In this document: positions 1 to 54,070 of the stretch, piece after piece
Position numbering within the stretch: position 1 is the first letter of the stretch
Layout: each line of letters starts with the position of its first letter
DNA from: a virus
Length of the DNA stretch: 54,070 bases
Strand: one strand, 5' to 3'
IMG/VR virus record: IMGVR_UViG_3300012964_000006
Location: 1-54,070 of that record
Notes under the pieces: model-generated
Database searches by the model: none
The model's input: the letters and a program-made list of their open reading frames with translations, nothing else
What the model was told of the DNA's origin: nothing
Position numbers and translations under genes: made by a program

Positions 1-123
1 GTCAATCTCAACACAGAGGCGGTAAGCGCGGGCGTAGGTGTATAGGTTTACTGTCTCCGCCGCCACTGGCGGTACTGCCTCGCCTCGTAGGTTATTACCG
101 TGGCCATTGTCAGGGCTACGATA
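1..123. repeat. Direct terminal repeat identical to 53948..54070 (contig closes on itself; unique length 53,947 bp)
   Basis: Bases 1-123 read identical to the last 123 bases of the window. Confidence 0.95.
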
Positions 124-4442: not shown

Positions 4443-4754
4443 TCACCCCTCTTGCTCTAGCTTAAAAGCCCGGCGAATCCTGTCGGCTAATTGGGAATTG
4501 TGGAGCGATTCGTATCCAACCTTGATAATCCCGGCGAAGCCCACTCCGAAGAATAGCGTCAGCCAGGTGTTGGCATCCAGCCGGCCGGCCATCACGAACG
4601 GAAACGACCAAAAGAAGATGATGAAATAGCCGGTTGTCCAGCGGTAATTTTCCTGGCGTTTCCAAAGTTTGCCCAGGGTGGGCGTGGTGATGCAGACCGT
4701 TACAATGATGAGCGTCCAGTAAATCAAATTTGGGATTGAAAAGAAGCTATCCAT
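4443..4754 (-). CDS. Membrane protein (3 predicted TM helices)
   Basis: Hydrophobic segments; AAGGAG upstream of ATG 4754; first gene of the minus-strand early operon. Confidence 0.65.
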   Translation of the reverse strand: MDSFFSIPNLIYWTLIIVTVCITTPTLGKLWKRQENYRWTTGYFIIFFWSFPFVMAGRLDANTWLTLFFGVGFAGIIKVGYESLHNSQLADRIRRAFKLEQEG

Positions 4755-4780: not shown

Positions 4781-4794
4781 AGTACACTTGTTCT
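4781..4794. promoter_or_regulatory. LexA-like box AGTACACTTGTTCT
   Basis: Minus-strand reading AGAACAAGTGTACT, 27-40 nt upstream of ATG 4754; same family as boxes at 41793, 42140 and 43449. Confidence 0.4.
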
Positions 4795-5162
4795 ATATGA
4801 TAGGACTAAATACCTATCTAAAAGTACCTCAGAAAACCCTGCACATTACTAACATATTTTTTTATAATTGCTTTAACTGCTGAGAAATTCCGCTGCTTTT
4901 GGGGAAATTCGGGGTTTGGTTCATATAAGTCAAATTATATGAACCTGTACCCTGGTTTCCCGCCACCGTTTTAGAACCTTTGTTTTTCGGGTTTCCATAT
5001 AGCACAATCGTTCTTTCAGGCTTTTGCTTGAGGGCCAATGACCGGGGTAATATGGGGGTACGGCAGAGGTTTTAACGTGGGCCGTAGCCGGTCCGATCAC
5101 GGGCCGTTTAGGGTGCCGTCCTGGTTGCCCGTCGAAAGCTGGCCAGGCGGCGATAGATAGAA

Positions 5163-5199: not shown

Positions 5200-5418
5200 T
5201 TAGTCAGGTTCTACCGTAAAAAGGGAATCGACCGTAACGCCCAGGGCGTTGGCAATGCCAGCCATTGTCTTTAGGCTAACATCGTCAATGTGATCACGTT
5301 TTGCCAGCCGGTAAATGTGGTTAGAGTGCTTCCCCATCATTTGGGCCAGCTTGTAGGCCGAGACTCCTTTTTGCTTTAGAACGGCATCGATATTACTCTT
5401 GATTGCCACTTCTAACAT
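5200..5418 (-). CDS. XRE/Cro-CI family HTH transcriptional regulator
   Basis: KQKGVSAYKLAQMMGKHSNHIYRLAKRD HTH pattern; ATG 5418 with GGAGG upstream; divergent from the early plus operon. Confidence 0.8.
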   Translation of the reverse strand: MLEVAIKSNIDAVLKQKGVSAYKLAQMMGKHSNHIYRLAKRDHIDDVSLKTMAGIANALGVTVDSLFTVEPD

Positions 5419-5450
5419 TTCGCCTCCACTTTTATTCAAACTGTGCCCTA

Positions 5451-5479
5451 ATCATACCACACAATATTGGTACTGTCAA
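5451..5479 (-). promoter_or_regulatory. Promoter TTGACA-17-TGgTATGAT for the XRE gene
   Basis: Minus strand: -35 TTGACA (5474-5479), 17 nt, TATGAT (5451-5456) with TGn extension. Confidence 0.6.
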
Positions 5480-5509
5480 TAGACGGACTACATCTTTAAG
5501 GTAATACCC

Positions 5510-5538
5510 TTGACAAACAGTACCATCTATGGTATACT
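5510..5538 (+). promoter_or_regulatory. Early rightward promoter TTGACA-17-TGgTATACT
   Basis: TTGACA 5510-5515, 17-nt spacer, TATACT 5533-5538; spacer holds TACCAT..ATGGTA inverted repeat (possible operator). Confidence 0.65.
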
Positions 5539-5576
5539 TTAATTATCAACAATAACCATACGAAAGGCAACGACAA

Positions 5577-6345: not shown

Positions 6346-6558
6346 ATGAAAATACAAGTAGGCGACAAGTTTAATTATCCAACCGCAGAGGTAGTTATTG
6401 AGGCCATTGAAATGCGGAATGAGACGGGTACGGGTTGGGAAGCCTGGATAATCCACGAACATCACGATCTTGAAACGGGCCAGTATACCACCCGCGATAC
6501 CCCGGCAATTGACTTTTGCCAGGCCCTGGAACGACAGGACAAAATAACCTACGGCTAA
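6346..6558 (+). CDS. Hypothetical protein (70 aa)
   Basis: ORF 6283..6558 trimmed to ATG 6346 (MKIQVGDKF) after repeat copy 3. Confidence 0.55.
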   Translation: MKIQVGDKFNYPTAEVVIEAIEMRNETGTGWEAWIIHEHHDLETGQYTTRDTPAIDFCQALERQDKITYG

Positions 6559-6768
6559 AAAACAAAAACCGGGGCAGCACACAACGCCGCCCCGGCCGAA
6601 CTAACAGAAAACGCTGAATGAATTTGGAGGTATCATAGACTAAAGAACAATGGCTCTAACTGACAACTGGTAACGAACAGTGTACCACTTGTGACAATAC
6701 AAGTCAACGGGTGGTATACATAAGGAAATTAGAAATTGGTTTGAGGAAAGTTGGAAAGGTTAAGAGAG

Positions 6769-32107: not shown

Positions 32108-32338
32108 ATGACAGCAACTATCTTCATCCTTGGCAAAAAGGCCACAATTACCGATTACGAATGGCGCGCCGACAATCCGGCGGTTGCCAATTTGTTAAAC
32201 TCGCTACTTGACCCGGCCGGCCCCTCTGGTGCCGATCCTAACCCGGATTTAACCACGGCCCAGGAAATCGCCATTAGATTCAACGGCGAGGTACTGGACT
32301 TCGAGCCGGTGAAATCGGAAACGGGCATCGTTTATTAA
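32108..32338 (+). CDS. Hypothetical 76-aa protein, convergent with the MuF gene end
   Basis: ORF 32075..32338 trimmed to ATG 32108; its stop overlaps the MuF stop. Confidence 0.5.
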   Translation: MTATIFILGKKATITDYEWRADNPAVANLLNSLLDPAGPSGADPNPDLTTAQEIAIRFNGEVLDFEPVKSETGIVY

Positions 32339-35106
32339 AATCCCCTCAAAAGCCCAAAAATAAAGTCAAAGTAGTCTGGATCGGCTTTGGCAAATGCCGC
32401 CGGGTCTGCCCACATATTTTCCATCCCCATTGATATAATTTCAGTGGCGTACCGTTGCCCCGTAGCCTTATTTAGATATTCCTTGCCCATATACGAACTG
32501 GTAAACTTGTCCCGGCGCGCAACCTCGTGTTTTTCGTAGCTACCCCCTAACCATTCCAGGGTTTCGCCCTTTGTTCGCCGGTCGTAAAACTCCAGGGCTT
32601 TTTGATGGACTCTTGGGTCCATATCTTCTAACCAATGTCCCAATTCGTGAATAGCCGTTCTTTGCCCGTCCCCCTTGCCAAGTACGACGCTGCCATTAAG
32701 GTCATAAAACGCACGGCCCTTACCCCTCGGCTTAATACCAACCGTCCTGCCATCAATGGTCCCTGTGCCAACCATCTTGGAAAATTCCTCGGCTCCGTCC
32801 TTGTACGCGGCCCGCCTGGTCTTATCAAATGTCCCCTCGAATTTTGTTTTTATCTGAGCGGGTTTTTTGACATAGAGAACTTCACGCTGACGAGACAGCA
32901 AACCCTGTTTTATTTCTGTAAGTTGGTTTACTAATGATGAGTGATGTATAACCTTCGCGTCAATGTCGCGGCTCATTTGCCTATATAATTCCCGGTCTGC
33001 GTCTGTCCAATTGGGATAATTATCGTAGAAGTTTCGCTTCTTTTCCCACATAGAATTTAATTCATCATCGGCCGTACTTATTTGCGCCCTCAGGCCCTTA
33101 ATTTCTTTGTCAAGTTTGTCCGGTATCGTTTCAAGTATTTGACTTCTGGCCCGTTGTCCCACATTAGCCAGTGCTTTCATTTGCTGGATCTTTAGTTGCT
33201 GCGCGCGCCTTTCTTCCTTTTCGCCCTGTGCCCTATCCCGCCGCATCTTTTCGTTGACGACTTTTTTATCTAGCGGCGTCTCGACTGCGCCTATGGCCGG
33301 GTGTATTGTCACCATCGAACAACGACAATTCTTGACAATAAACGTATTGCTGATGTATAATTGTTCTATAGTTTGGAGGTCAAAAACGTGTCCAGAAAAA
33401 TCGAAATTCCTAACCTTGATGATTTGATTATTCGATATAAATCCGGCGAATCTATTAAAGAATTGTCGCGCCAAATTGGTATAGGTGGTGGGCCTCTCTG
33501 CCGACGATTTGCTCAGGCTGGTGTGAAAATTAGACACCCCAAGCGCGTCGACGTACCCAACCTCGGCGTCATTGTAGCCAGGTATGCCGCCGGTGAACCG
33601 GAACAAAGACTCGCCAAAGAATACGGTATAACCCGTACTATTCTGCGTCGTCGGTTGATTGAGGCCGGGGTGCCCATTCGTGGCATTAGTGAAGCCAACA
33701 CGATTCGGATGCAAAATATGTCTCCCGGGAATCGCCTGGTTTTGACCGAAGCCGCCCACTCTGCCGTAAGGGGTAAAAAGCGCACCGAGGCCGAACTTAT
33801 CAAGCGGGCCATAACCCGTCAGGAAACCTTGCAGTATGTTACCCCGGCTGAATTGATTTTGATCGAAATGCTCGGGGAGCGCGGTATCATTCTTACTCCG
33901 CAAAAAGCCTACGGCCGGTACAATATCGATATTGCCCTTGATGAATTTCCCGTCGCCGTGGAAGTAATGGGGCATAACGGCGCTTACCGCTTGAAAACCC
34001 TCTCTGGCTACAACCGAAAGAGAACCCCATATCTCCTCGATTCTGGTTGGCACGTGGTCATTGTCCGGGTCGACGGTACGCGCTATTTCATTACCCCGGC
34101 TGCTGCCGATTACATAGTCGCCTTCACGCAAGAACTTGGCCGCAACAAACCCCCTACTAGTCAATATCGGGTGATTGGGGGTAACGGTGAGTTGTTTACC
34201 GCTGTCTATGGTTAGCTCGATGGCTGGTCCATCATAAAAGGACCGAGCCGCCGCAACCAAGCCAGGGGCGATAACACTATTGCCTGGCAAAATACAGTTG
34301 ACGGTTTCTTGCGCTCCCCCGGCCGGATCGCCCGGCTGCATCAAAAACGAGCCGCCCACCTGAAACGGCTGGCTCACCGGAATAGGTGCAAAGAAATACC
34401 GGCTATGGGCTATCAGGTGACTTCGACGCGTTCTCCTGTCTGCCGCCGCTAACCATCGCTTTTGTAGTTCTGGTATCGCTTTTGCTGTCTCCGCCTGTTG
34501 GCTTGCCGCCGCCAGGTTGTAAACGCGGGTCATCTCTGTCCGGGCGATAGCCTCGGACCTGGCGGCAACGCCCGTGACAATCTCCGGCCTGCGCCTGATT
34601 CCCCACGCGCCCGCCCGGGCCTCCGTGCCGAGTATGTCCGTTATGGCTTTCATCGTGTCCAATGGGCTGCGCTGTCCCAGCGTGGCCAGCCTCAGTTGTA
34701 CGTCAATCTGGCCCCGCATCGTGTCGCTGACATTACGGATAAGCGCGGCGCTGTAATCAAACGAGGCGTTCAGTTGCGCCGGGTTGATGACGTTAAACGC
34801 CCCTCCAAGGTCTGCCTGTATGATCGGGTCCACCACGGAGTCGCCGCCAAGTCGCGCCGCCTGGTTAAATGATTGCCGCAGATTGGCGTCAAGCCGGGCC
34901 TGGTACTCGTCAATCATCCGGTTTATGCTCGTCTGCATCTCGCCCATTCGCCAGGCGGCAAATTCGGACGTGGCAACCTGTCCGGCGATTTGATTCCGCA
35001 AATCCTGGAGGGCCGAGATAAGCGCCTTCACGGTGTCATCTTCCAGGGAGACATACCGGCGAATGACCGAATCAAGCGCGGTTTTATACTTCTGCTTTGG
35101 GGTCAT
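32335..35106 (-). CDS. Head morphogenesis / minor capsid protein (Mu F / SPP1 gp7-like) interrupted by an intein, with a C-terminal HExxH domain
   Basis: MuF-like N-domain ending ..ETVN | intein | CRCSMV (N-CRC motif); position after portal; HELGH at 32635-32649. Confidence 0.75.
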   Translation of the reverse strand: MTPKQKYKTALDSVIRRYVSLEDDTVKALISALQDLRNQIAGQVATSEFAAWRMGEMQTSINRMIDEYQARLDANLRQSFNQAARLGGDSVVDPIIQADLGGAFNVINPAQLNASFDYSAALIRNVSDTMRGQIDVQLRLATLGQRSPLDTMKAITDILGTEARAGAWGIRRRPEIVTGVAARSEAIARTEMTRVYNLAAASQQAETAKAIPELQKRWLAAADRRTRRSHLIAHSRYFFAPIPVSQPFQVGGSFLMQPGDPAGGAQETVNCILPGNSVIAPGLVAAARSFYDGPAIELTIDSGKQLTVTPNHPILTSRGFVAAKFLREGDYVIGSSRGNEIARTVDPDNDHVPTRIEEIWGSLSVVAREGFQAVSAVMPHYFHGDGKFIKGNIDIVPAVGFLRSKNDTALPEHFDQNQFSRGNILQGFLTGYGPLDKFGLGALFTPYGRVGGFGQNQAIPGRHILHPNRVGFTNATNGHPGLNQPTTQNSTGYTVFFGESLFRFTGGIPGYNDAEVGYVDALGVSNFHTSLSKSSAERPTTYTNLARQFFNRFAGFISNNQIIKVRNFDFSGHVFDLQTIEQLYISNTFIVKNCRCSMVTIHPAIGAVETPLDKKVVNEKMRRDRAQGEKEERRAQQLKIQQMKALANVGQRARSQILETIPDKLDKEIKGLRAQISTADDELNSMWEKKRNFYDNYPNWTDADRELYRQMSRDIDAKVIHHSSLVNQLTEIKQGLLSRQREVLYVKKPAQIKTKFEGTFDKTRRAAYKDGAEEFSKMVGTGTIDGRTVGIKPRGKGRAFYDLNGSVVLGKGDGQRTAIHELGHWLEDMDPRVHQKALEFYDRRTKGETLEWLGGSYEKHEVARRDKFTSSYMGKEYLNKATGQRYATEIISMGMENMWADPAAFAKADPDYFDFIFGLLRGF
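33332..33361 (+). promoter_or_regulatory. Promoter TTGACA-18-TATAAT for the antisense endonuclease gene
   Basis: TTGACA 33332-33337 (overlaps intein codons VKN), TATAAT 33356-33361, GGAGG 33375-33379. Confidence 0.6.
33388..34215 (+). CDS. HTH-repeat plus Vsr/DUF559-type PD-(D/E)XK endonuclease (homing endonuclease candidate), antisense within the intein
   Basis: GTG 33388 after GGAGG; repeats IIRYKSGESIKELSRQIG / IVARYAAGEPEQRLAKEYG; nuclease core GRYNIDIALDEFPVAVEVMGH..GWHVVIV. Confidence 0.65.
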   Translation: MSRKIEIPNLDDLIIRYKSGESIKELSRQIGIGGGPLCRRFAQAGVKIRHPKRVDVPNLGVIVARYAAGEPEQRLAKEYGITRTILRRRLIEAGVPIRGISEANTIRMQNMSPGNRLVLTEAAHSAVRGKKRTEAELIKRAITRQETLQYVTPAELILIEMLGERGIILTPQKAYGRYNIDIALDEFPVAVEVMGHNGAYRLKTLSGYNRKRTPYLLDSGWHVVIVRVDGTRYFITPAAADYIVAFTQELGRNKPPTSQYRVIGGNGELFTAVYG

Positions 35107-39739: not shown

Positions 39740-39767
39740 AAGAACACCTGTTCGATTCGGATAGAAA

Positions 39768-40953: not shown

Positions 40954-41604
40954 CTAATGAGTGATATAAAACGCTCTTTGTTCAAATAGGGCCATCTGCT
41001 CAGGCCCCACTACTCTGTATGCATCAGGTAGGTCTGCTTGTTTGTACACTGGCGGGTTCTCCGTTTCATACCTCATATCATCTAGGGGTAAACTCGCTCC
41101 GACTGTCCAGCCCAGCCCGTCCCGTTTGATAAACTCTGCTCTCCACAAGTTGCCAGTGTAACCACTGTGACAATTCCGGCAGAGCAGACAACATTTGTCT
41201 AATTCCTTCCAGGTTTCGGCAAAATTATTGTTATAAATAAGCGAGGTGGGAGTATGCTTCTTTTCGGCCCGGTAAATATGATGAAAGTCCAACCCTGCCG
41301 TAAATTCCTTGTATCCACACCGCTGGCAACACCCACCGGACAATTCCACAAACTTAACTTTTAGCCCGTTGTTCCGATCCCTGTTGTATTTCTTTGCCCA
41401 CTCCCTATCCCGCTTTGCGTTGTTCTCACAATCAATACAATAACTCCGATACCCATAATTTGTGTTTTGGCCTTCGCCTGGATTCCGCCACCTGTAAAAC
41501 TGCTTTACCGGCTTGAATCGCTTGCACTCGCTACACCATAATTGGCCCTGACTCCACATCTGATTACGGAGCTTTAATTCTGTTGTTGTTAATCTCTTTG
41601 GCAC
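40954..41604 (-). CDS. HNH endonuclease
   Basis: CSECK, CIDCE, CQRCG..DFHHI..CLLCRNCH; GTG start; own promoter and leader. Confidence 0.75.
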   Translation of the reverse strand: MPKRLTTTELKLRNQMWSQGQLWCSECKRFKPVKQFYRWRNPGEGQNTNYGYRSYCIDCENNAKRDREWAKKYNRDRNNGLKVKFVELSGGCCQRCGYKEFTAGLDFHHIYRAEKKHTPTSLIYNNNFAETWKELDKCCLLCRNCHSGYTGNLWRAEFIKRDGLGWTVGASLPLDDMRYETENPPVYKQADLPDAYRVVGPEQMALFEQRAFYITH

Positions 41605-41787
41605 AGTCTCACCCCTATCTCGTAAGCTATGCGCCCGCCGATTTCGGCAAAATAAAAACGGCTATCTTGTCAGACAACCGTCAATGTGCTAGAATGATTC
41701 TAGCGACTGTTGCCTATCTCAGCGGTCGCTCTTTAGCCGGCTTTGGGTGTTCCTGCACCCGGCCGGCTTTCATTTTTGATTGACGGT

Positions 41788-41816
41788 ATTATAGCACAGA
41801 TGTTCTTTTAGTTCAA
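41788..41816 (-). promoter_or_regulatory. Promoter TTGAAC-17-TGcTATAAT
   Basis: Minus strand: TTGAAC = 41811-41816, TATAAT = 41788-41793. Confidence 0.6.
41793..41806. promoter_or_regulatory. LexA-like box AGCACAGATGTTCT in the promoter spacer
   Basis: Minus-strand reading AGAACATCTGTGCT abutting the -10. Confidence 0.45.
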
Positions 41817-41823
41817 CTTTATG

Positions 41824-42138
41824 TTAGTCCGATCTGCTAGATACCTTAACCCCCGGCCGCTTACTCGACGGCAATACCACCCCGTCAACCAGCTTTCCGG
41901 CTTCCTCATCTGGCACCCAGGCCAGGTAATATTGATTGTTCTCTGTCAGTATCCACTTGACGGTATACCGTGGTTTCATCTGCCCTCGCTCGCCCCCCCC
42001 TTGGCCGGCCAGGGTAAAGGAGACGAAACCCCTGGCCGGCTGTCCAAGGAGGCCGCTGATGAAGTCTAAATGAGTACTTACTCGTGTTAATCCCGCTGCG
42101 TCAAATCTTAAACGTTTTAGCGTGTCAAATTCCGGCAT
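41824..42138 (-). CDS. Hypothetical protein
   Basis: 104-aa ORF. Confidence 0.55.
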   Translation of the reverse strand: MPEFDTLKRLRFDAAGLTRVSTHLDFISGLLGQPARGFVSFTLAGQGGGERGQMKPRYTVKWILTENNQYYLAWVPDEEAGKLVDGVVLPSSKRPGVKVSSRSD

Positions 42139-42361
42139 CAGAACGCGTGTTCTGTCCGTCGTCTAAAACCCGAATCGCCCGGGCCAATCCCGGCGCTCGT
42201 TCGATCAGGCCCATTGCCTCTAATTTTAACACGTGATGCTGGGCCGCGCTGCTACTGGCCAGGCCCACGCCGGCGGCAATCTCGCGGCAGGTTGGAGCCC
42301 GGCCCGTATCGGCAAAATGCTCTTTGATATAGGCTAAAACTTGTAAGGTGCGAATTTTCAT
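42125..42361 (-). CDS. LexA N-terminal DNA-binding-domain-only protein (78 aa, no S24 peptidase domain)
   Basis: MKIRTLQVLAYIKEHFADTGRAPTCREIAAGVGLASSSAAQHHVLKLEAMGLIER..RAIRVL matches the LexA wHTH pattern; ATGA-coupled start 42361. Confidence 0.7.
   Translation of the reverse strand: MKIRTLQVLAYIKEHFADTGRAPTCREIAAGVGLASSSAAQHHVLKLEAMGLIERAPGLARAIRVLDDGQNTRSDAGI
42139..42154. promoter_or_regulatory. LexA-like palindrome CAGAAC-GCGT-GTTCTG
   Basis: Lies in the last codons of the LexA-like gene, just upstream of ATG 42138. Confidence 0.45.
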
Positions 42362-42594
42362 TTTATCAGGCCCCACACCTTAAGCTGTTCGTGGCGCTTG
42401 TCCCTCTGTTGGTGCGGAACGGGCCGTTTTTGTTTTTCGGGCTGGAAGATGATCGGCTTATCAAAACTGCCACTGGCCACGCAAATATAGCGACTCGAAT
42501 CCGCCGTAGTACACTGGCAGGGCCAGCTATGGCAAGATTGGCAAACCCCGTTGAATGTTGCGCTTGAACTGGTATCGTCTAATTTTATGTACAT
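42358..42594 (-). CDS. Hypothetical Cys-rich protein
   Basis: 78-aa ORF. Confidence 0.5.
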   Translation of the reverse strand: MYIKLDDTSSSATFNGVCQSCHSWPCQCTTADSSRYICVASGSFDKPIIFQPEKQKRPVPHQQRDKRHEQLKVWGLIK

Positions 42595-42623
42595 AAGCGA
42601 TGACTATGACTAAAACATACGTT

Positions 42624-42842
42624 CTACCCGGCCGGCGGCAATTTATCCAGGTCCACGCCGTCGACTTCCTTTGCCACAAACCGCCAGTTTTTGGCCATCA
42701 TTAGCAAATTGGATAATGCCAATTCGTCGGCCTCGCCCTGGGCCAATGCCTGGCGCAACATTTCATTTTTGCGCTTGATTCCGTTTAGCAATTCTTCCAG
42801 GCGCCTGGCCGCCTCGTCCATCCTGAAGTGATCCTCGCTCAC
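42624..42842 (-). CDS. Hypothetical coiled-coil protein
   Basis: 72-aa ORF; similar in style to 42859..43044. Confidence 0.5.
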   Translation of the reverse strand: MSEDHFRMDEAARRLEELLNGIKRKNEMLRQALAQGEADELALSNLLMMAKNWRFVAKEVDGVDLDKLPPAG

Positions 42843-43044: not shown

Positions 43045-43303
43045 CGTGGCCCCTTCCCCAAAACTCATCGGCCAATTGTTCCGCGACGGCCTGGGCCGTG
43101 GTAATTTCTGCAAGCCGGTTTTCGAGATGGTTTAGGGCTTCGGTCAGGCGGTCGATCCGGTCGAGGAATTGCTTATCCCGCCTGTCAACGTACCAGGCAA
43201 AGATAACCAACAGGGGAAATTGAACTATAATCGGGGTCAGGAGTTCCCATTCAGGCGTTGCCGCCCCTTGCAAAAATGGCATAAATAGTGATATGATGTT
43301 CAT
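43013..43303 (-). CDS. Membrane protein
   Basis: 96 aa, N-terminal TM helices; first gene after the 43.4-kb switch region. Confidence 0.55.
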   Translation of the reverse strand: MNIISLFMPFLQGAATPEWELLTPIIVQFPLLVIFAWYVDRRDKQFLDRIDRLTEALNHLENRLAEITTAQAVAEQLADEFWGRGHDDRKSNIGRG

Positions 43304-43392
43304 AGGCTCTCAGGGAAGCACCTTTTTCCTGTTTGCTCAGGCCCGGGCCGGGTGCGGAAATCACCTGACCCGGGCCGCGTGGTTTAAAGACA

Positions 43393-43429
43393 AAGGGCCA
43401 TACCCCGCTAGCGGTACGGCCCTTTTTTA
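43393..43429 (-). terminator. Promoter-proximal terminator-like hairpin (T-rich on both strands)
   Basis: GGGCC(43395-43399)..GGCCC(43418-43422); TTTTTT on plus, TTTGTCTTT on minus. Confidence 0.45.
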
Positions 43430-43448
43430 CGCCTGTTCTTTTCTGGCA

Positions 43449-43462
43449 AGAACGGGTGTTCT
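43449..43462. promoter_or_regulatory. LexA-like box AGAACGGGTGTTCT
   Basis: GAAC-N4-GTTC core; immediately downstream of the minus-strand -10; extra half-site TGTTCT at 43433-43438. Confidence 0.5.
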
Positions 43463-43468
43463 GTTGTT

Positions 43469-43497
43469 ATAATATTATGTTTTATGCCTATTGTCAA
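43469..43497 (-). promoter_or_regulatory. Promoter TTGACA-17-TATTAT (leftward operon)
   Basis: Minus strand: TTGACA = 43492-43497, TATTAT = 43469-43474. Confidence 0.55.
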
Positions 43498-43557
43498 GTT
43501 AAGGTTTTTGGCAGGTTGACAATAATAAAACCCGTCTAAAACTCGTGGTAAAAACTA

Positions 43558-43586
43558 TTGACAACTGACTATATATCGGATATAAT
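43558..43586 (+). promoter_or_regulatory. Perfect consensus promoter TTGACA-17-TATAAT (rightward)
   Basis: TTGACA 43558-43563, TATAAT 43581-43586, 45 nt upstream of ATG 43632. Confidence 0.7.
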
Positions 43587-43631
43587 ATAGTCAATCAACA
43601 ATAATTAATTAGTTTCTCACGGAGGATAAAA

Positions 43632-43847
43632 ATGTTTAGCTTTCTCAAAGGTTCTAAGGTTATCGCCCCCAGTGGCAAGACGCTAGAAATTCTTGAAGTT
43701 GAGGTCGAGGTCGTGAAAGACACGGCCGGGCAGACACACAATAACATTTCCTATACCGTCTCCTGGAACGGCGGCGAACCGGAAACAGCCTTCCCTTCGG
43801 CCGTCAACGGCTTGGCCCAAATTCCGGGTAGCCAGGTAATCAAATGA
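43632..43847 (+). CDS. Hypothetical protein
   Basis: 71-aa ORF with GGAGG SD. Confidence 0.6.
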   Translation: MFSFLKGSKVIAPSGKTLEILEVEVEVVKDTAGQTHNNISYTVSWNGGEPETAFPSAVNGLAQIPGSQVIK

Positions 43848-53834: not shown

Positions 53835-54013
53835 TTTTGCGCCTCGCTCAATTCCCCGTCCAATATCGCCCTCACCACCTCGTCCAGCGTTCGCAACAAC
53901 ACGCCGTCCCTGGTGCGCCAGTGAGCCCGGCCGCTGGTCAGGCCGGCGTCAATCTCAACACAGAGGCGGTAAGCGCGGGCGTAGGTGTATAGGTTTACTG
54001 TCTCCGCCGCCAC
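53831..54013 (-). CDS. Hypothetical protein (60 aa, GTG start)
   Basis: ORF-track entry; partly inside the terminal repeat. Confidence 0.45.
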   Translation of the reverse strand: MAAETVNLYTYARAYRLCVEIDAGLTSGRAHWRTRDGVLLRTLDEVVRAILDGELSEAQK

Positions 54014-54070
54014 TGGCGGTACTGCCTCGCCTCGTAGGTTATTACCGTGGCCATTGTCAGGGCTACGATA
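53948..54070. repeat. Direct terminal repeat (copy of 1..123)
   Basis: Identical sequence. Confidence 0.95.

Follow-up and report, generated by a model that had tools for sequence, protein, structure and literature searches.

The LexA-type gene and its product

The window analysed herein, the whole stretch of 54,070 nucleotides (nt) of the IMG/VR virus record IMGVR_UViG_3300012964_000006, carries on its minus strand a small gene whose product of 78 amino acids (aa) has the winged helix-turn-helix (HTH) fold seen in LexA's DNA-binding domain (DBD). This gene, referred to below as the LexA-DBD gene, closes a small minus-strand operon as its last clear member, and the promoter of the operon for the HNH endonuclease, the terminase and the structural proteins comes next. 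The features at the locus, including three open reading frames (ORFs), are listed below; the promoters are consensus predictions throughout.

42125..42361, minus strand: LexA-type winged-HTH gene (DNA-binding domain only), 78 aa, ATG at 42361 and TGA at 42125, assigned by Pfam, PDB, fold and PHROG 3502 and 362
42358..42594, minus strand: cysteine-rich 78-aa ORF (ORF78), an uncertain gene with no family, not called by public gene callers
43469..43497, minus strand: promoter TTGACA-17-TATTAT (11 of 12 matches), heading the operon from 43303 to 42125
41824..42138, minus strand: 104-aa ORF in the interval from the gene to the late promoter, a doubtful gene, not S24-like, called in one of three public contigs
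41788..41816, minus strand: late promoter TTGAAC-17-TATAAT with TG extension, heading the packaging/structural operon

The 78-aa product (MKIRTLQVLAYIKEHFADTGRAPTCREIAAGVGLASSSAAQHHVLKLEAMGLIERAPGLARAIRVLDDGQNTRSDAGI) matched the Pfam family PF01726 (LexA_DNA_bind) with an E-value of 3.3e-15 (56 bits, cut-off 23.7), ten orders of magnitude better than the next-best family, HTH_IclR (1e-4). In the PDB, E. coli LexA was matched with E=7.5e-9, the ungapped alignment pairing residues 4-69 with LexA residues 7-72. The AlphaFold model, with a predicted local distance difference test score (pLDDT) of 80.8, consists of three helices and a two-strand wing; the folded domain is predicted at residues 3-66, and the tail at residues 69-78 is of low confidence (pLDDT <50). 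The top PDB matches of this model were the E. coli LexA-DNA complexes 3jsp/3jso (TM-score 0.80-0.82, root-mean-square deviation 1.0-1.6 A). An initial annotation of this DNA, made from the letters alone, had assigned the product to the N-terminal winged HTH of LexA, and all three comparisons agree with it.

The remainder of LexA is missing. When full-length B. subtilis LexA was used as the tblastn query, residues 3-71 alone aligned with the window (45% identity, E=7e-14), and no S24-like sequence was found in any frame of the 54 kb. The match to the NCBIfam model TIGR00498 (lexA) was confined to model positions 7-74 of 203 and scored 58.2 bits, below the cut-off of 110.95. The Ala-Gly cleavage site and the Ser/Lys dyad are absent, the protein ending before them, as the initial annotation had stated; its remark that the downstream ORF is not S24-like also holds, since the 104-aa ORF has no Pfam or PHROG family. 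This ORF showed no similarity to gp7 of the tectivirus GIL01, and its homology to the neighbour of the LexA-DBD gene in L001, the closest long relative, was rejected for the same lack of similarity. An S24 remnant and a frameshift fusion of the LexA-DBD gene with the 104-aa ORF were both ruled out, the fusion because a stop lies 9 codons ahead of the ATG in the frame of the 104-aa ORF.

Judged by its sequence, the 78-aa protein is the LexA DNA-binding domain alone, a close equivalent of the N-terminal fragment released by LexA autocleavage, and not itself a LexA, as the cleavage and dimerisation features are lacking. Its boundaries are nearly equal to those of the E. coli LexA 1-84 autocleavage fragment, the end here lying at about E. 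coli residue 81. Unlike that fragment, it is genetically encoded and not a cleavage product, and its tail, RSDAGI, is unrelated. The E. coli fragment keeps weak specific DNA binding, and ClpXP clears it by way of the newly formed C-terminus. Because neither the cleavage site nor the S24 protease is present in the sequence, RecA* would be expected to be unable to inactivate the 78-aa protein. The recognition helix begins GLASSS, as in Bacillus LexA, and four helix residues differ from those of Bacillus LexA.

The operon from 43303 to 42125 comprises ORFs of 96, 69 and 72 aa, ORF78 and the LexA-DBD gene; it starts at a divergent promoter region (43303-43632), and the promoter scan returned no other minus-strand promoter between 43469..43497 and the LexA-DBD gene. 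The stop of ORF78 and the ATG of the LexA-DBD gene share bases (ATGA), an arrangement characteristic of translationally coupled genes.

LexA-type boxes at the phage promoters

The motif AGAAC-N4-GTTCT was counted at up to one mismatch over the whole window. Nine boxes were observed against 0.88 expected, and none of 100 shuffled sequences reached nine, so that the boxes for which the initial annotation had proposed a genome-wide scan against a background model are present in clear excess. That annotation had counted four boxes; the boxes exist, but their number is nine, of which two are perfect (42140 and 43449), and these two bracket the LexA-DBD operon. The nine boxes are as follows.

42140..42153: AGAACGCGTGTTCT, perfect; in the last codons of the LexA-DBD gene, 1 nt ahead of the ATG of the 104-aa ORF
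43449..43462: AGAACGGGTGTTCT, perfect; about +1 to +14 of the LexA-DBD operon promoter
42612..42625: AAAACATACGTTCT, 1 mismatch; overlaps the stop of the 72-aa ORF, within the operon and upstream of the LexA-DBD gene
41793..41806: AGCACAGATGTTCT, minus-strand reading AGAACATCTGTGCT; fills the late-promoter spacer, fused to the extended -10 (TGTGCTATAAT)
39741..39754: AGAACACCTGTTCG; in the 31-nt gap after the DUF5662 gene, 4 nt ahead of the ATG of the next gene
5001..5014: AGCACAATCGTTCT, minus-strand reading AGAACGATTGTGCT; fused to the putative extended -10 TATATG that heads the leftward replication/methylase operon
4973..4986: AGAACCTTTGTTTT; its centre is 28 nt from that of the 5001 box, and relative to the putative promoter it spans about +3 to +16
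4781..4794: AGTACACTTGTTCT; 27 nt ahead of the ATG at 4754 and sharing bases with TATAGA, a weak -10-like sequence
6644..6657: AGAACAATGGCTCT; about +15 to +28 past the minus-strand promoter 6707..6679 and upstream of the terminator 6597..6567, in the rightward early region

The enrichment was also seen in an unbiased check of all palindromes with 5-mer arms and spacers of 0-10, in which AGAAC with the N4 spacer reached p=2.5e-7, a value equalled in 1 of 200 simulated genomes. It was the best palindrome that is not GC-rich; only GC-rich strings of the GGCCGG type outranked it, and these look compositional. Over the whole window, GGCC, CCGG and GGCCGG-type palindromes were 4-5 fold over a first-order model. 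No second enriched AT-rich palindrome was found in the palindrome scans of the window.

Under an over-generous ORF map, at least five of the nine boxes are non-coding (binomial p=0.001), and this number rises to eight if two doubtful ORFs that overlap promoters (59 and 58 aa) are dropped; the 59-aa ORF is uncalled on the public contigs, and discounting the 58-aa ORF, which has a TTG start, is our own judgement. The palindrome C-AGAAC-GCGT-GTTCT-G, placed by the initial annotation in the last codons of the gene, is indeed present at 42139-42154, where it codes for residues 70-75 (QNTRSD) in the low-confidence tail.

Two geometries recur in the positions of boxes relative to promoters. At the LexA-DBD operon, the box at 43449-62 starts 6 nt past the -10, with an extra half-site AGAACA (minus strand) beside it at 43434-43439. 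At the late promoter, the box at 41793-806 reaches over 13 bases of the 17-base spacer and also includes the first -10 base (AGAACATCTGTGC joined directly to TATAAT). The leftward replication operon repeats both, with AGAACGATTGTGC joined directly to TATATG and a second box 9 nt later; the putative 5001 promoter was not called by the scan tool, as it has no -35. At every box position, a protein sitting on the DNA would obstruct RNA polymerase.

With the form GAAC-N4-GTTC and an overlap with core promoter elements, the boxes agree with the description of Cheo-type LexA operators. Their consensus equals that of the Gram-positive-type LexA operator (PMC4234289). It is one base from the cyanobacterial LexA form RGTACNNNDGTWCB (PMC3091678), which box 4781 matches exactly. 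On sequence grounds, the boxes are of the form read by Gram-positive, Chloroflexi and cyanobacterial LexA.

The ends of the window (1-123 and 53948-54070) overlap exactly over 123 nt, and the window thus represents a complete circle with an assembled length of 53,947 bp. The leftward operon with its start near 4754 therefore runs on across the window ends. The same genome occurs nearly unchanged in four public samples, the contigs with the same protein being 99.97-100% identical. It is the genome of an uncultured tailed phage, encoding DnaB, a replication-initiator-like HTH protein, two DNA methylases, a VRR-NUC protein, two HNH endonucleases and a DUF5662 protein, together with a structural set of large terminase, portal, intein-containing MuF protein, capsid and tail module. 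The ORFs scanned included neither an integrase nor an S24 repressor. The LexA-DBD gene marks the border between the replication/modification genes and the packaging/structural genes, and the late operon beyond it holds the HNH endonuclease, the DUF5662 protein, the large terminase, the portal, MuF, capsid and tail genes. The 923-aa MuF-like head morphogenesis protein (32335-35106, minus strand) contains an intein, with Pfam Intein_splicing at residues 286-593 scoring below the gathering score.

Host clues were few. The large terminase matched reference genomes at only ~30% identity, in assorted metagenome-assembled genomes, and was 46% identical to those of Acidovorax, Limnohabitans and Aphanizomenon phages; the best match of portal and capsid was the Microcystis phage Mae-JY22 (~30%). 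The genome has no tRNAs, and HIP1 (GCGATCGC) is absent from the window. The structural proteins match a mix of phages, which is at most a weak cyanobacterial hint.

Further features lie in the leaders and at a second promoter region.

43392..43425, minus strand: strong hairpin with flanking A and U runs, terminator-like on both strands, in the LexA-DBD operon leader (leader fold z=-4.1)
41657..41682, minus strand: terminator-like hairpin followed by UUUUUAUUUU, in the late-operon leader (leader fold z=-7.1)
40954..41604, minus strand: HNH endonuclease, first gene past the late promoter (PHROG 2255, E=8e-25)
5479..5451, minus strand, and 5510..5538, plus strand: TG-extended promoters beside the XRE gene, near consensus

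At three box-bearing minus-strand promoters, a terminator-like hairpin follows ~40-125 nt on (43392-43425, 41657-41682 and 6567-6597). The two folded leaders are far more stable than shuffled sequences, and no Rfam family was found in the structured leaders; the hairpins suggest attenuation, antitermination or short RNAs. The late leader also contains a promoter-like TTGTCA-17-TAGAAT with TG (41667-41695, plus strand), which is antisense and directed toward the late promoter and the LexA-DBD gene. Directly after the -10, the late promoter and the perfect-consensus rightward promoter at 43558..43586 have TATAATA-NN-GTCAATCAA in common (41772-41793, minus strand, and 43581-43602, plus strand), and the rightward promoter lies inside an inverted repeat with 22-nt arms (43553-43574 / 43585-43606); this common sequence or the repeat may be an operator for a second regulator. 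A gene for a 79-aa XRE-family HTH protein (5200..5439, minus strand) adjoins the two divergent, near-consensus TG-extended promoters listed above, and the region 5200-5540, with this small XRE protein, is a second switch-like region of the CI/Cro kind. The leaders, the common sequence and the XRE region point to further control layers, possibly including antitermination.

Relatives of the gene and known LexA-type systems

No relative of the 78-aa protein above 56% identity was found in 5.8 billion proteins, in IMG/VR or in JGI metagenomes, and an exhaustive search gave no match below E=1e-30. With near-identical contigs on the one side and no close relatives on the other, phylogenetic footprinting was impossible. 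Among those inspected of the best 150 matches of the exhaustive search, there was no canonical full-length LexA, and only four single-domain matches had at least 177 aa; by hand count, these 150 are mostly single-domain proteins of 68-140 aa or tandem repeats of the domain. The matches P0004-P0012, P0116 and P0142 would be built-in pseudo-dimers.

Boxes were then surveyed in 31 loci with relatives of the LexA-DBD gene (29 from the metagenome scan plus L001 and L004; 178 kb). At up to one mismatch, these loci hold 15 boxes, and for 13 of them a short standalone LexA-DBD gene (69-140 aa) lies no more than ~400 nt away. Five distinct elements, namely L032, L040, L042, L043/45/46 and L050, have a box after the stop codon, and box 42140 of the window corresponds to it. 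The first box has at most two mismatches in L032, L042 and L043/45/46, where a second box lies 23-47 nt on and is fused to an extended -10; it is degenerate in L040 and L050. The form of the second box, (A/C)GAAC-N4-GTGCTAnnnT, is the structure found in the window at 41806..41788. Most of the five elements have a further box in or beside the promoter of the LexA-DBD gene itself, and some box-bearing elements look chromosomal or island-like and not phage-like. The gene with its predicted flanking operators behaves as a recurrent, portable module, which most likely descends from an autoregulated lexA gene.

Other arrangements were seen among the relatives. L001, a high-GC contig with an integrase and ParA, encodes a LexA-DBD of 79 aa and carries two perfect GTGCA-N3-TGCAC palindromes (6406-6418 and 6451-6463) just upstream of the gene, with no other perfect copy in 14.7 kb; sites of this type were looked for in the window and rejected. 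Two paralogous LexA-DBD-only genes stand in tandem in L034 (from 727), L035 (from 908) and L042 (279-479). Bacillus phage 11143, a B. cereus phage, encodes an 83-aa LexA-DBD whose recognition helix, GLASSSTVHGHL, does not differ from the helix in the sequence of B. subtilis LexA used here. At the promoter of its LexA-DBD gene (L062, 3903-3916) there is a Cheo-like box, AGAACATACGTTTG, the only one in 8.2 kb.

The only characterised parallel is gp6 of the Betatectivirus GIL01/Bam35, described as a phage-encoded LexA homologue (Fornelos et al. 2018, PMC6182141). Like the 78-aa protein, gp6 (66 aa) is a single LexA-type winged HTH encoded by a phage, with no cleavage or dimerisation domain, and both genes are found a short way upstream of a late promoter with GAAC-N4-GTTC boxes, one of them abutting the -10. 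In GIL01, this late promoter is P3 (GGAACACTCGTTCG joined directly to TATTAT). Unlike GIL01, a tectivirus, the genome described here is that of a 54-kb tailed phage, and the two proteins are only 32% identical (pairwise E=2e-7).

With canonical LexA, the 78-aa protein shares the DNA-binding fold (TM 0.8), 45% identity to B. subtilis residues 3-71, GAAC-N4-GTTC operators of the B. subtilis type and a box on its own promoter, as at lexA; it differs in having no Ala-Gly site, Ser/Lys dyad or S24 dimerisation domain and in scoring below the TIGR00498 cut-off. The same architecture and size are found in gp13 of the Mycobacterium phages Wildcat and Cosmo, the protein of Bacillus phage 11143 and the members of PHROG 3502 and 362 (41-44% identity), which are annotated but uncharacterised and belong to other hosts. 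Phage 11143 resembles the window in the Cheo-type box at the promoter of the gene, whereas Cosmo has no box cluster near the gene. The viral structure matches (BFVD) are entries of 65-80 aa named "LexA repressor DNA-binding domain-containing protein", and PHROG 362 is annotated as "transcriptional repressor". Lambda CI and the S24-type repressors are likewise phage repressors and are linked to the SOS pathway, but they are built of an HTH_3 DNA-binding domain and an S24 autocleavage domain, neither of which is found in the 78-aa protein.

Standalone LexA DNA-binding domains of phages are therefore already known, and the novelty implied by the initial annotation was overstated: since the GIL01 gp6 type has been described, the present case is a further gp6-like example and not a new kind of system. 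The present analysis contributes the set of operators spread over this phage genome and the finding that boxes fused to a -10 recur in elements unrelated to each other.

The reader of the boxes

Under the reading that we favour, although tentatively, the 78-aa protein would bind the nine AGAAC-N4-GTTCT operators of the phage directly and repress there. The target would be the box at about +1 in its own operon, the box in the -35/-10 spacer in the packaging/structural operon, and the boxes on and just past the extended -10 in the leftward replication operon. The points for the phage protein as the binder are the recurring linkage of operator and regulator, the perfect boxes around its own operon, the GLASSS start of the recognition helix and the tight palindrome binding of gp6; the LexA N-terminal domain alone is a specific DNA binder, and the affinity of gp6 for its own site is in the nM range (PMC6182141). 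As the box form fits Gram-positive, Chloroflexi and cyanobacterial LexA, these sites are probably also read by host LexA. Most likely, the boxes are shared operators read by both the phage protein and host LexA, and the phage promoters may be under two control layers, a cleavable host LexA and an uncleavable phage copy.

Several observations weigh against binding and repression by the phage protein. Of the five positions at which E. coli LexA contacts bases (taken from PMC3091678), the 78-aa protein keeps two, the equivalents of S39 and A42, so that its specificity is not readable from homology. As it has no dimerisation domain, its affinity for a palindrome may be low. The box-bearing relatives have an SVLRH-type recognition helix, against AAQHH here, with a one-residue deletion, and the GAAC core is kept nonetheless; a constant core despite divergent helices would be expected from a conserved host factor. 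L001 and L064, whose helices are most similar to the one here, are without boxes, L064 having half-site matches only. In GIL01, host LexA occupies the Cheo-type boxes together with gp7, and gp6 binds GACACA-N2-TGTGAC, centred at -43.5, and activates (PMC6182141). Finally, if the phage itself makes the repressor of its near-consensus late promoter, some mechanism must lift the repression, and none was found.

The proposal of the initial annotation that the protein represses box-bearing phage promoters thus stands in part: the boxes are enriched, they lie at repressor positions and their linkage to the gene recurs, but the choice of the phage protein over host LexA as the binder goes a step further, and the boxes of GIL01 are bound by host LexA. 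The domain identity, the absence of cleavage machinery, the enrichment and promoter positions of the boxes and the recurrence of the module are established, whereas the identity of the binder and the choice of repression over activation are inferred.

A division of labour as in GIL01 is the strongest alternative, though we consider it somewhat unlikely. Host LexA alone would occupy the boxes, giving SOS-controlled early, middle and late promoters, and the 78-aa protein, having diverged in specificity, would act at another site as an activator or modulator of late transcription. The GIL01 arrangement argues for it, with gp6 just upstream of P3 and its tandem host-LexA boxes (GGAACACTCGTTCG before TATTAT there, AGAACATCTGTGC before TATAAT here), as does the position of the LexA-DBD gene at the early/late border, immediately upstream of the late promoter; the lack of an integrase or S24 repressor among the scanned ORFs is also as in GIL01, and the GAAC core is kept across relatives with divergent recognition helices. 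Yet the scans of the window, unlike GIL01, gave no second enriched palindrome for the protein's own site, and no gp7 homologue that could serve as a gp7-like partner was found in it. Nothing palindromic lies at about -43 of the late promoter P(41816), and the relatives have a GAAC box ~23 nt upstream of the -10-fused box. In addition, the late promoter is near consensus and so should not need an activator, and use of the boxes by the protein would better account for the tight linkage of gene and box outside phage contexts.

A broader proposal, which we regard as rather unlikely, is a widespread and so far undescribed "LexA-N" module. Its uncleavable paralogue with Cheo-box specificity would be held off by host LexA and, after LexA cleavage, would take over the operators of the element and of the chromosome, re-closing or re-timing SOS promoters independently of RecA.

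It appears improbable that the host is the main target, in which case the protein would act as an uncleavable LexA mimic on host SOS boxes after infection or LexA cleavage, shutting the SOS regulon wholly or partly without RecA, and the phage boxes would serve mainly for autoregulation. The protein is truncated where LexA cleavage would end the product, and its fold and GLASSS helix start match Bacillus-type LexA, but four recognition-helix residues differ from it. In phage 11143, whose helix is identical to that of Bacillus LexA, binding to host SOS boxes is close to unavoidable. The box consensus of the window is a Gram-positive-type operator, one base from the cyanobacterial type; nine boxes at phage promoters nevertheless point to a phage-directed role.

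A Q-like antiterminator loaded at the promoter boxes for read-through of the leader hairpins, or a generic small winged-HTH regulator unlinked to the boxes, is very improbable: strongly structured leaders with a terminator-like hairpin ~40-125 nt on follow three box-bearing promoters, the late-promoter box lies between -35 and -10 like the lambda Q site and the gene just upstream, like Q, but no known antiterminator has such a fold, the box positions vary by promoter (spacer, +1, +15), and the hairpins are predictions, one of which (43392-43425) is a better terminator on the opposite strand.

Returning to the favoured reading of an uncleavable phage repressor, the case opens no new category. 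If the protein binds the boxes, this virus would have copied only the DNA-reading half of the host SOS repressor. It would thereby hold a RecA-blind switch on LexA-type operators, one that times early and late transcription and perhaps silences the damage response of the host. The layout found in this phage and seen in phage 11143, at P3 of GIL01 and in several uncultured elements suggests that LexA-linked control of the GIL01 type is not confined to tectiviruses.

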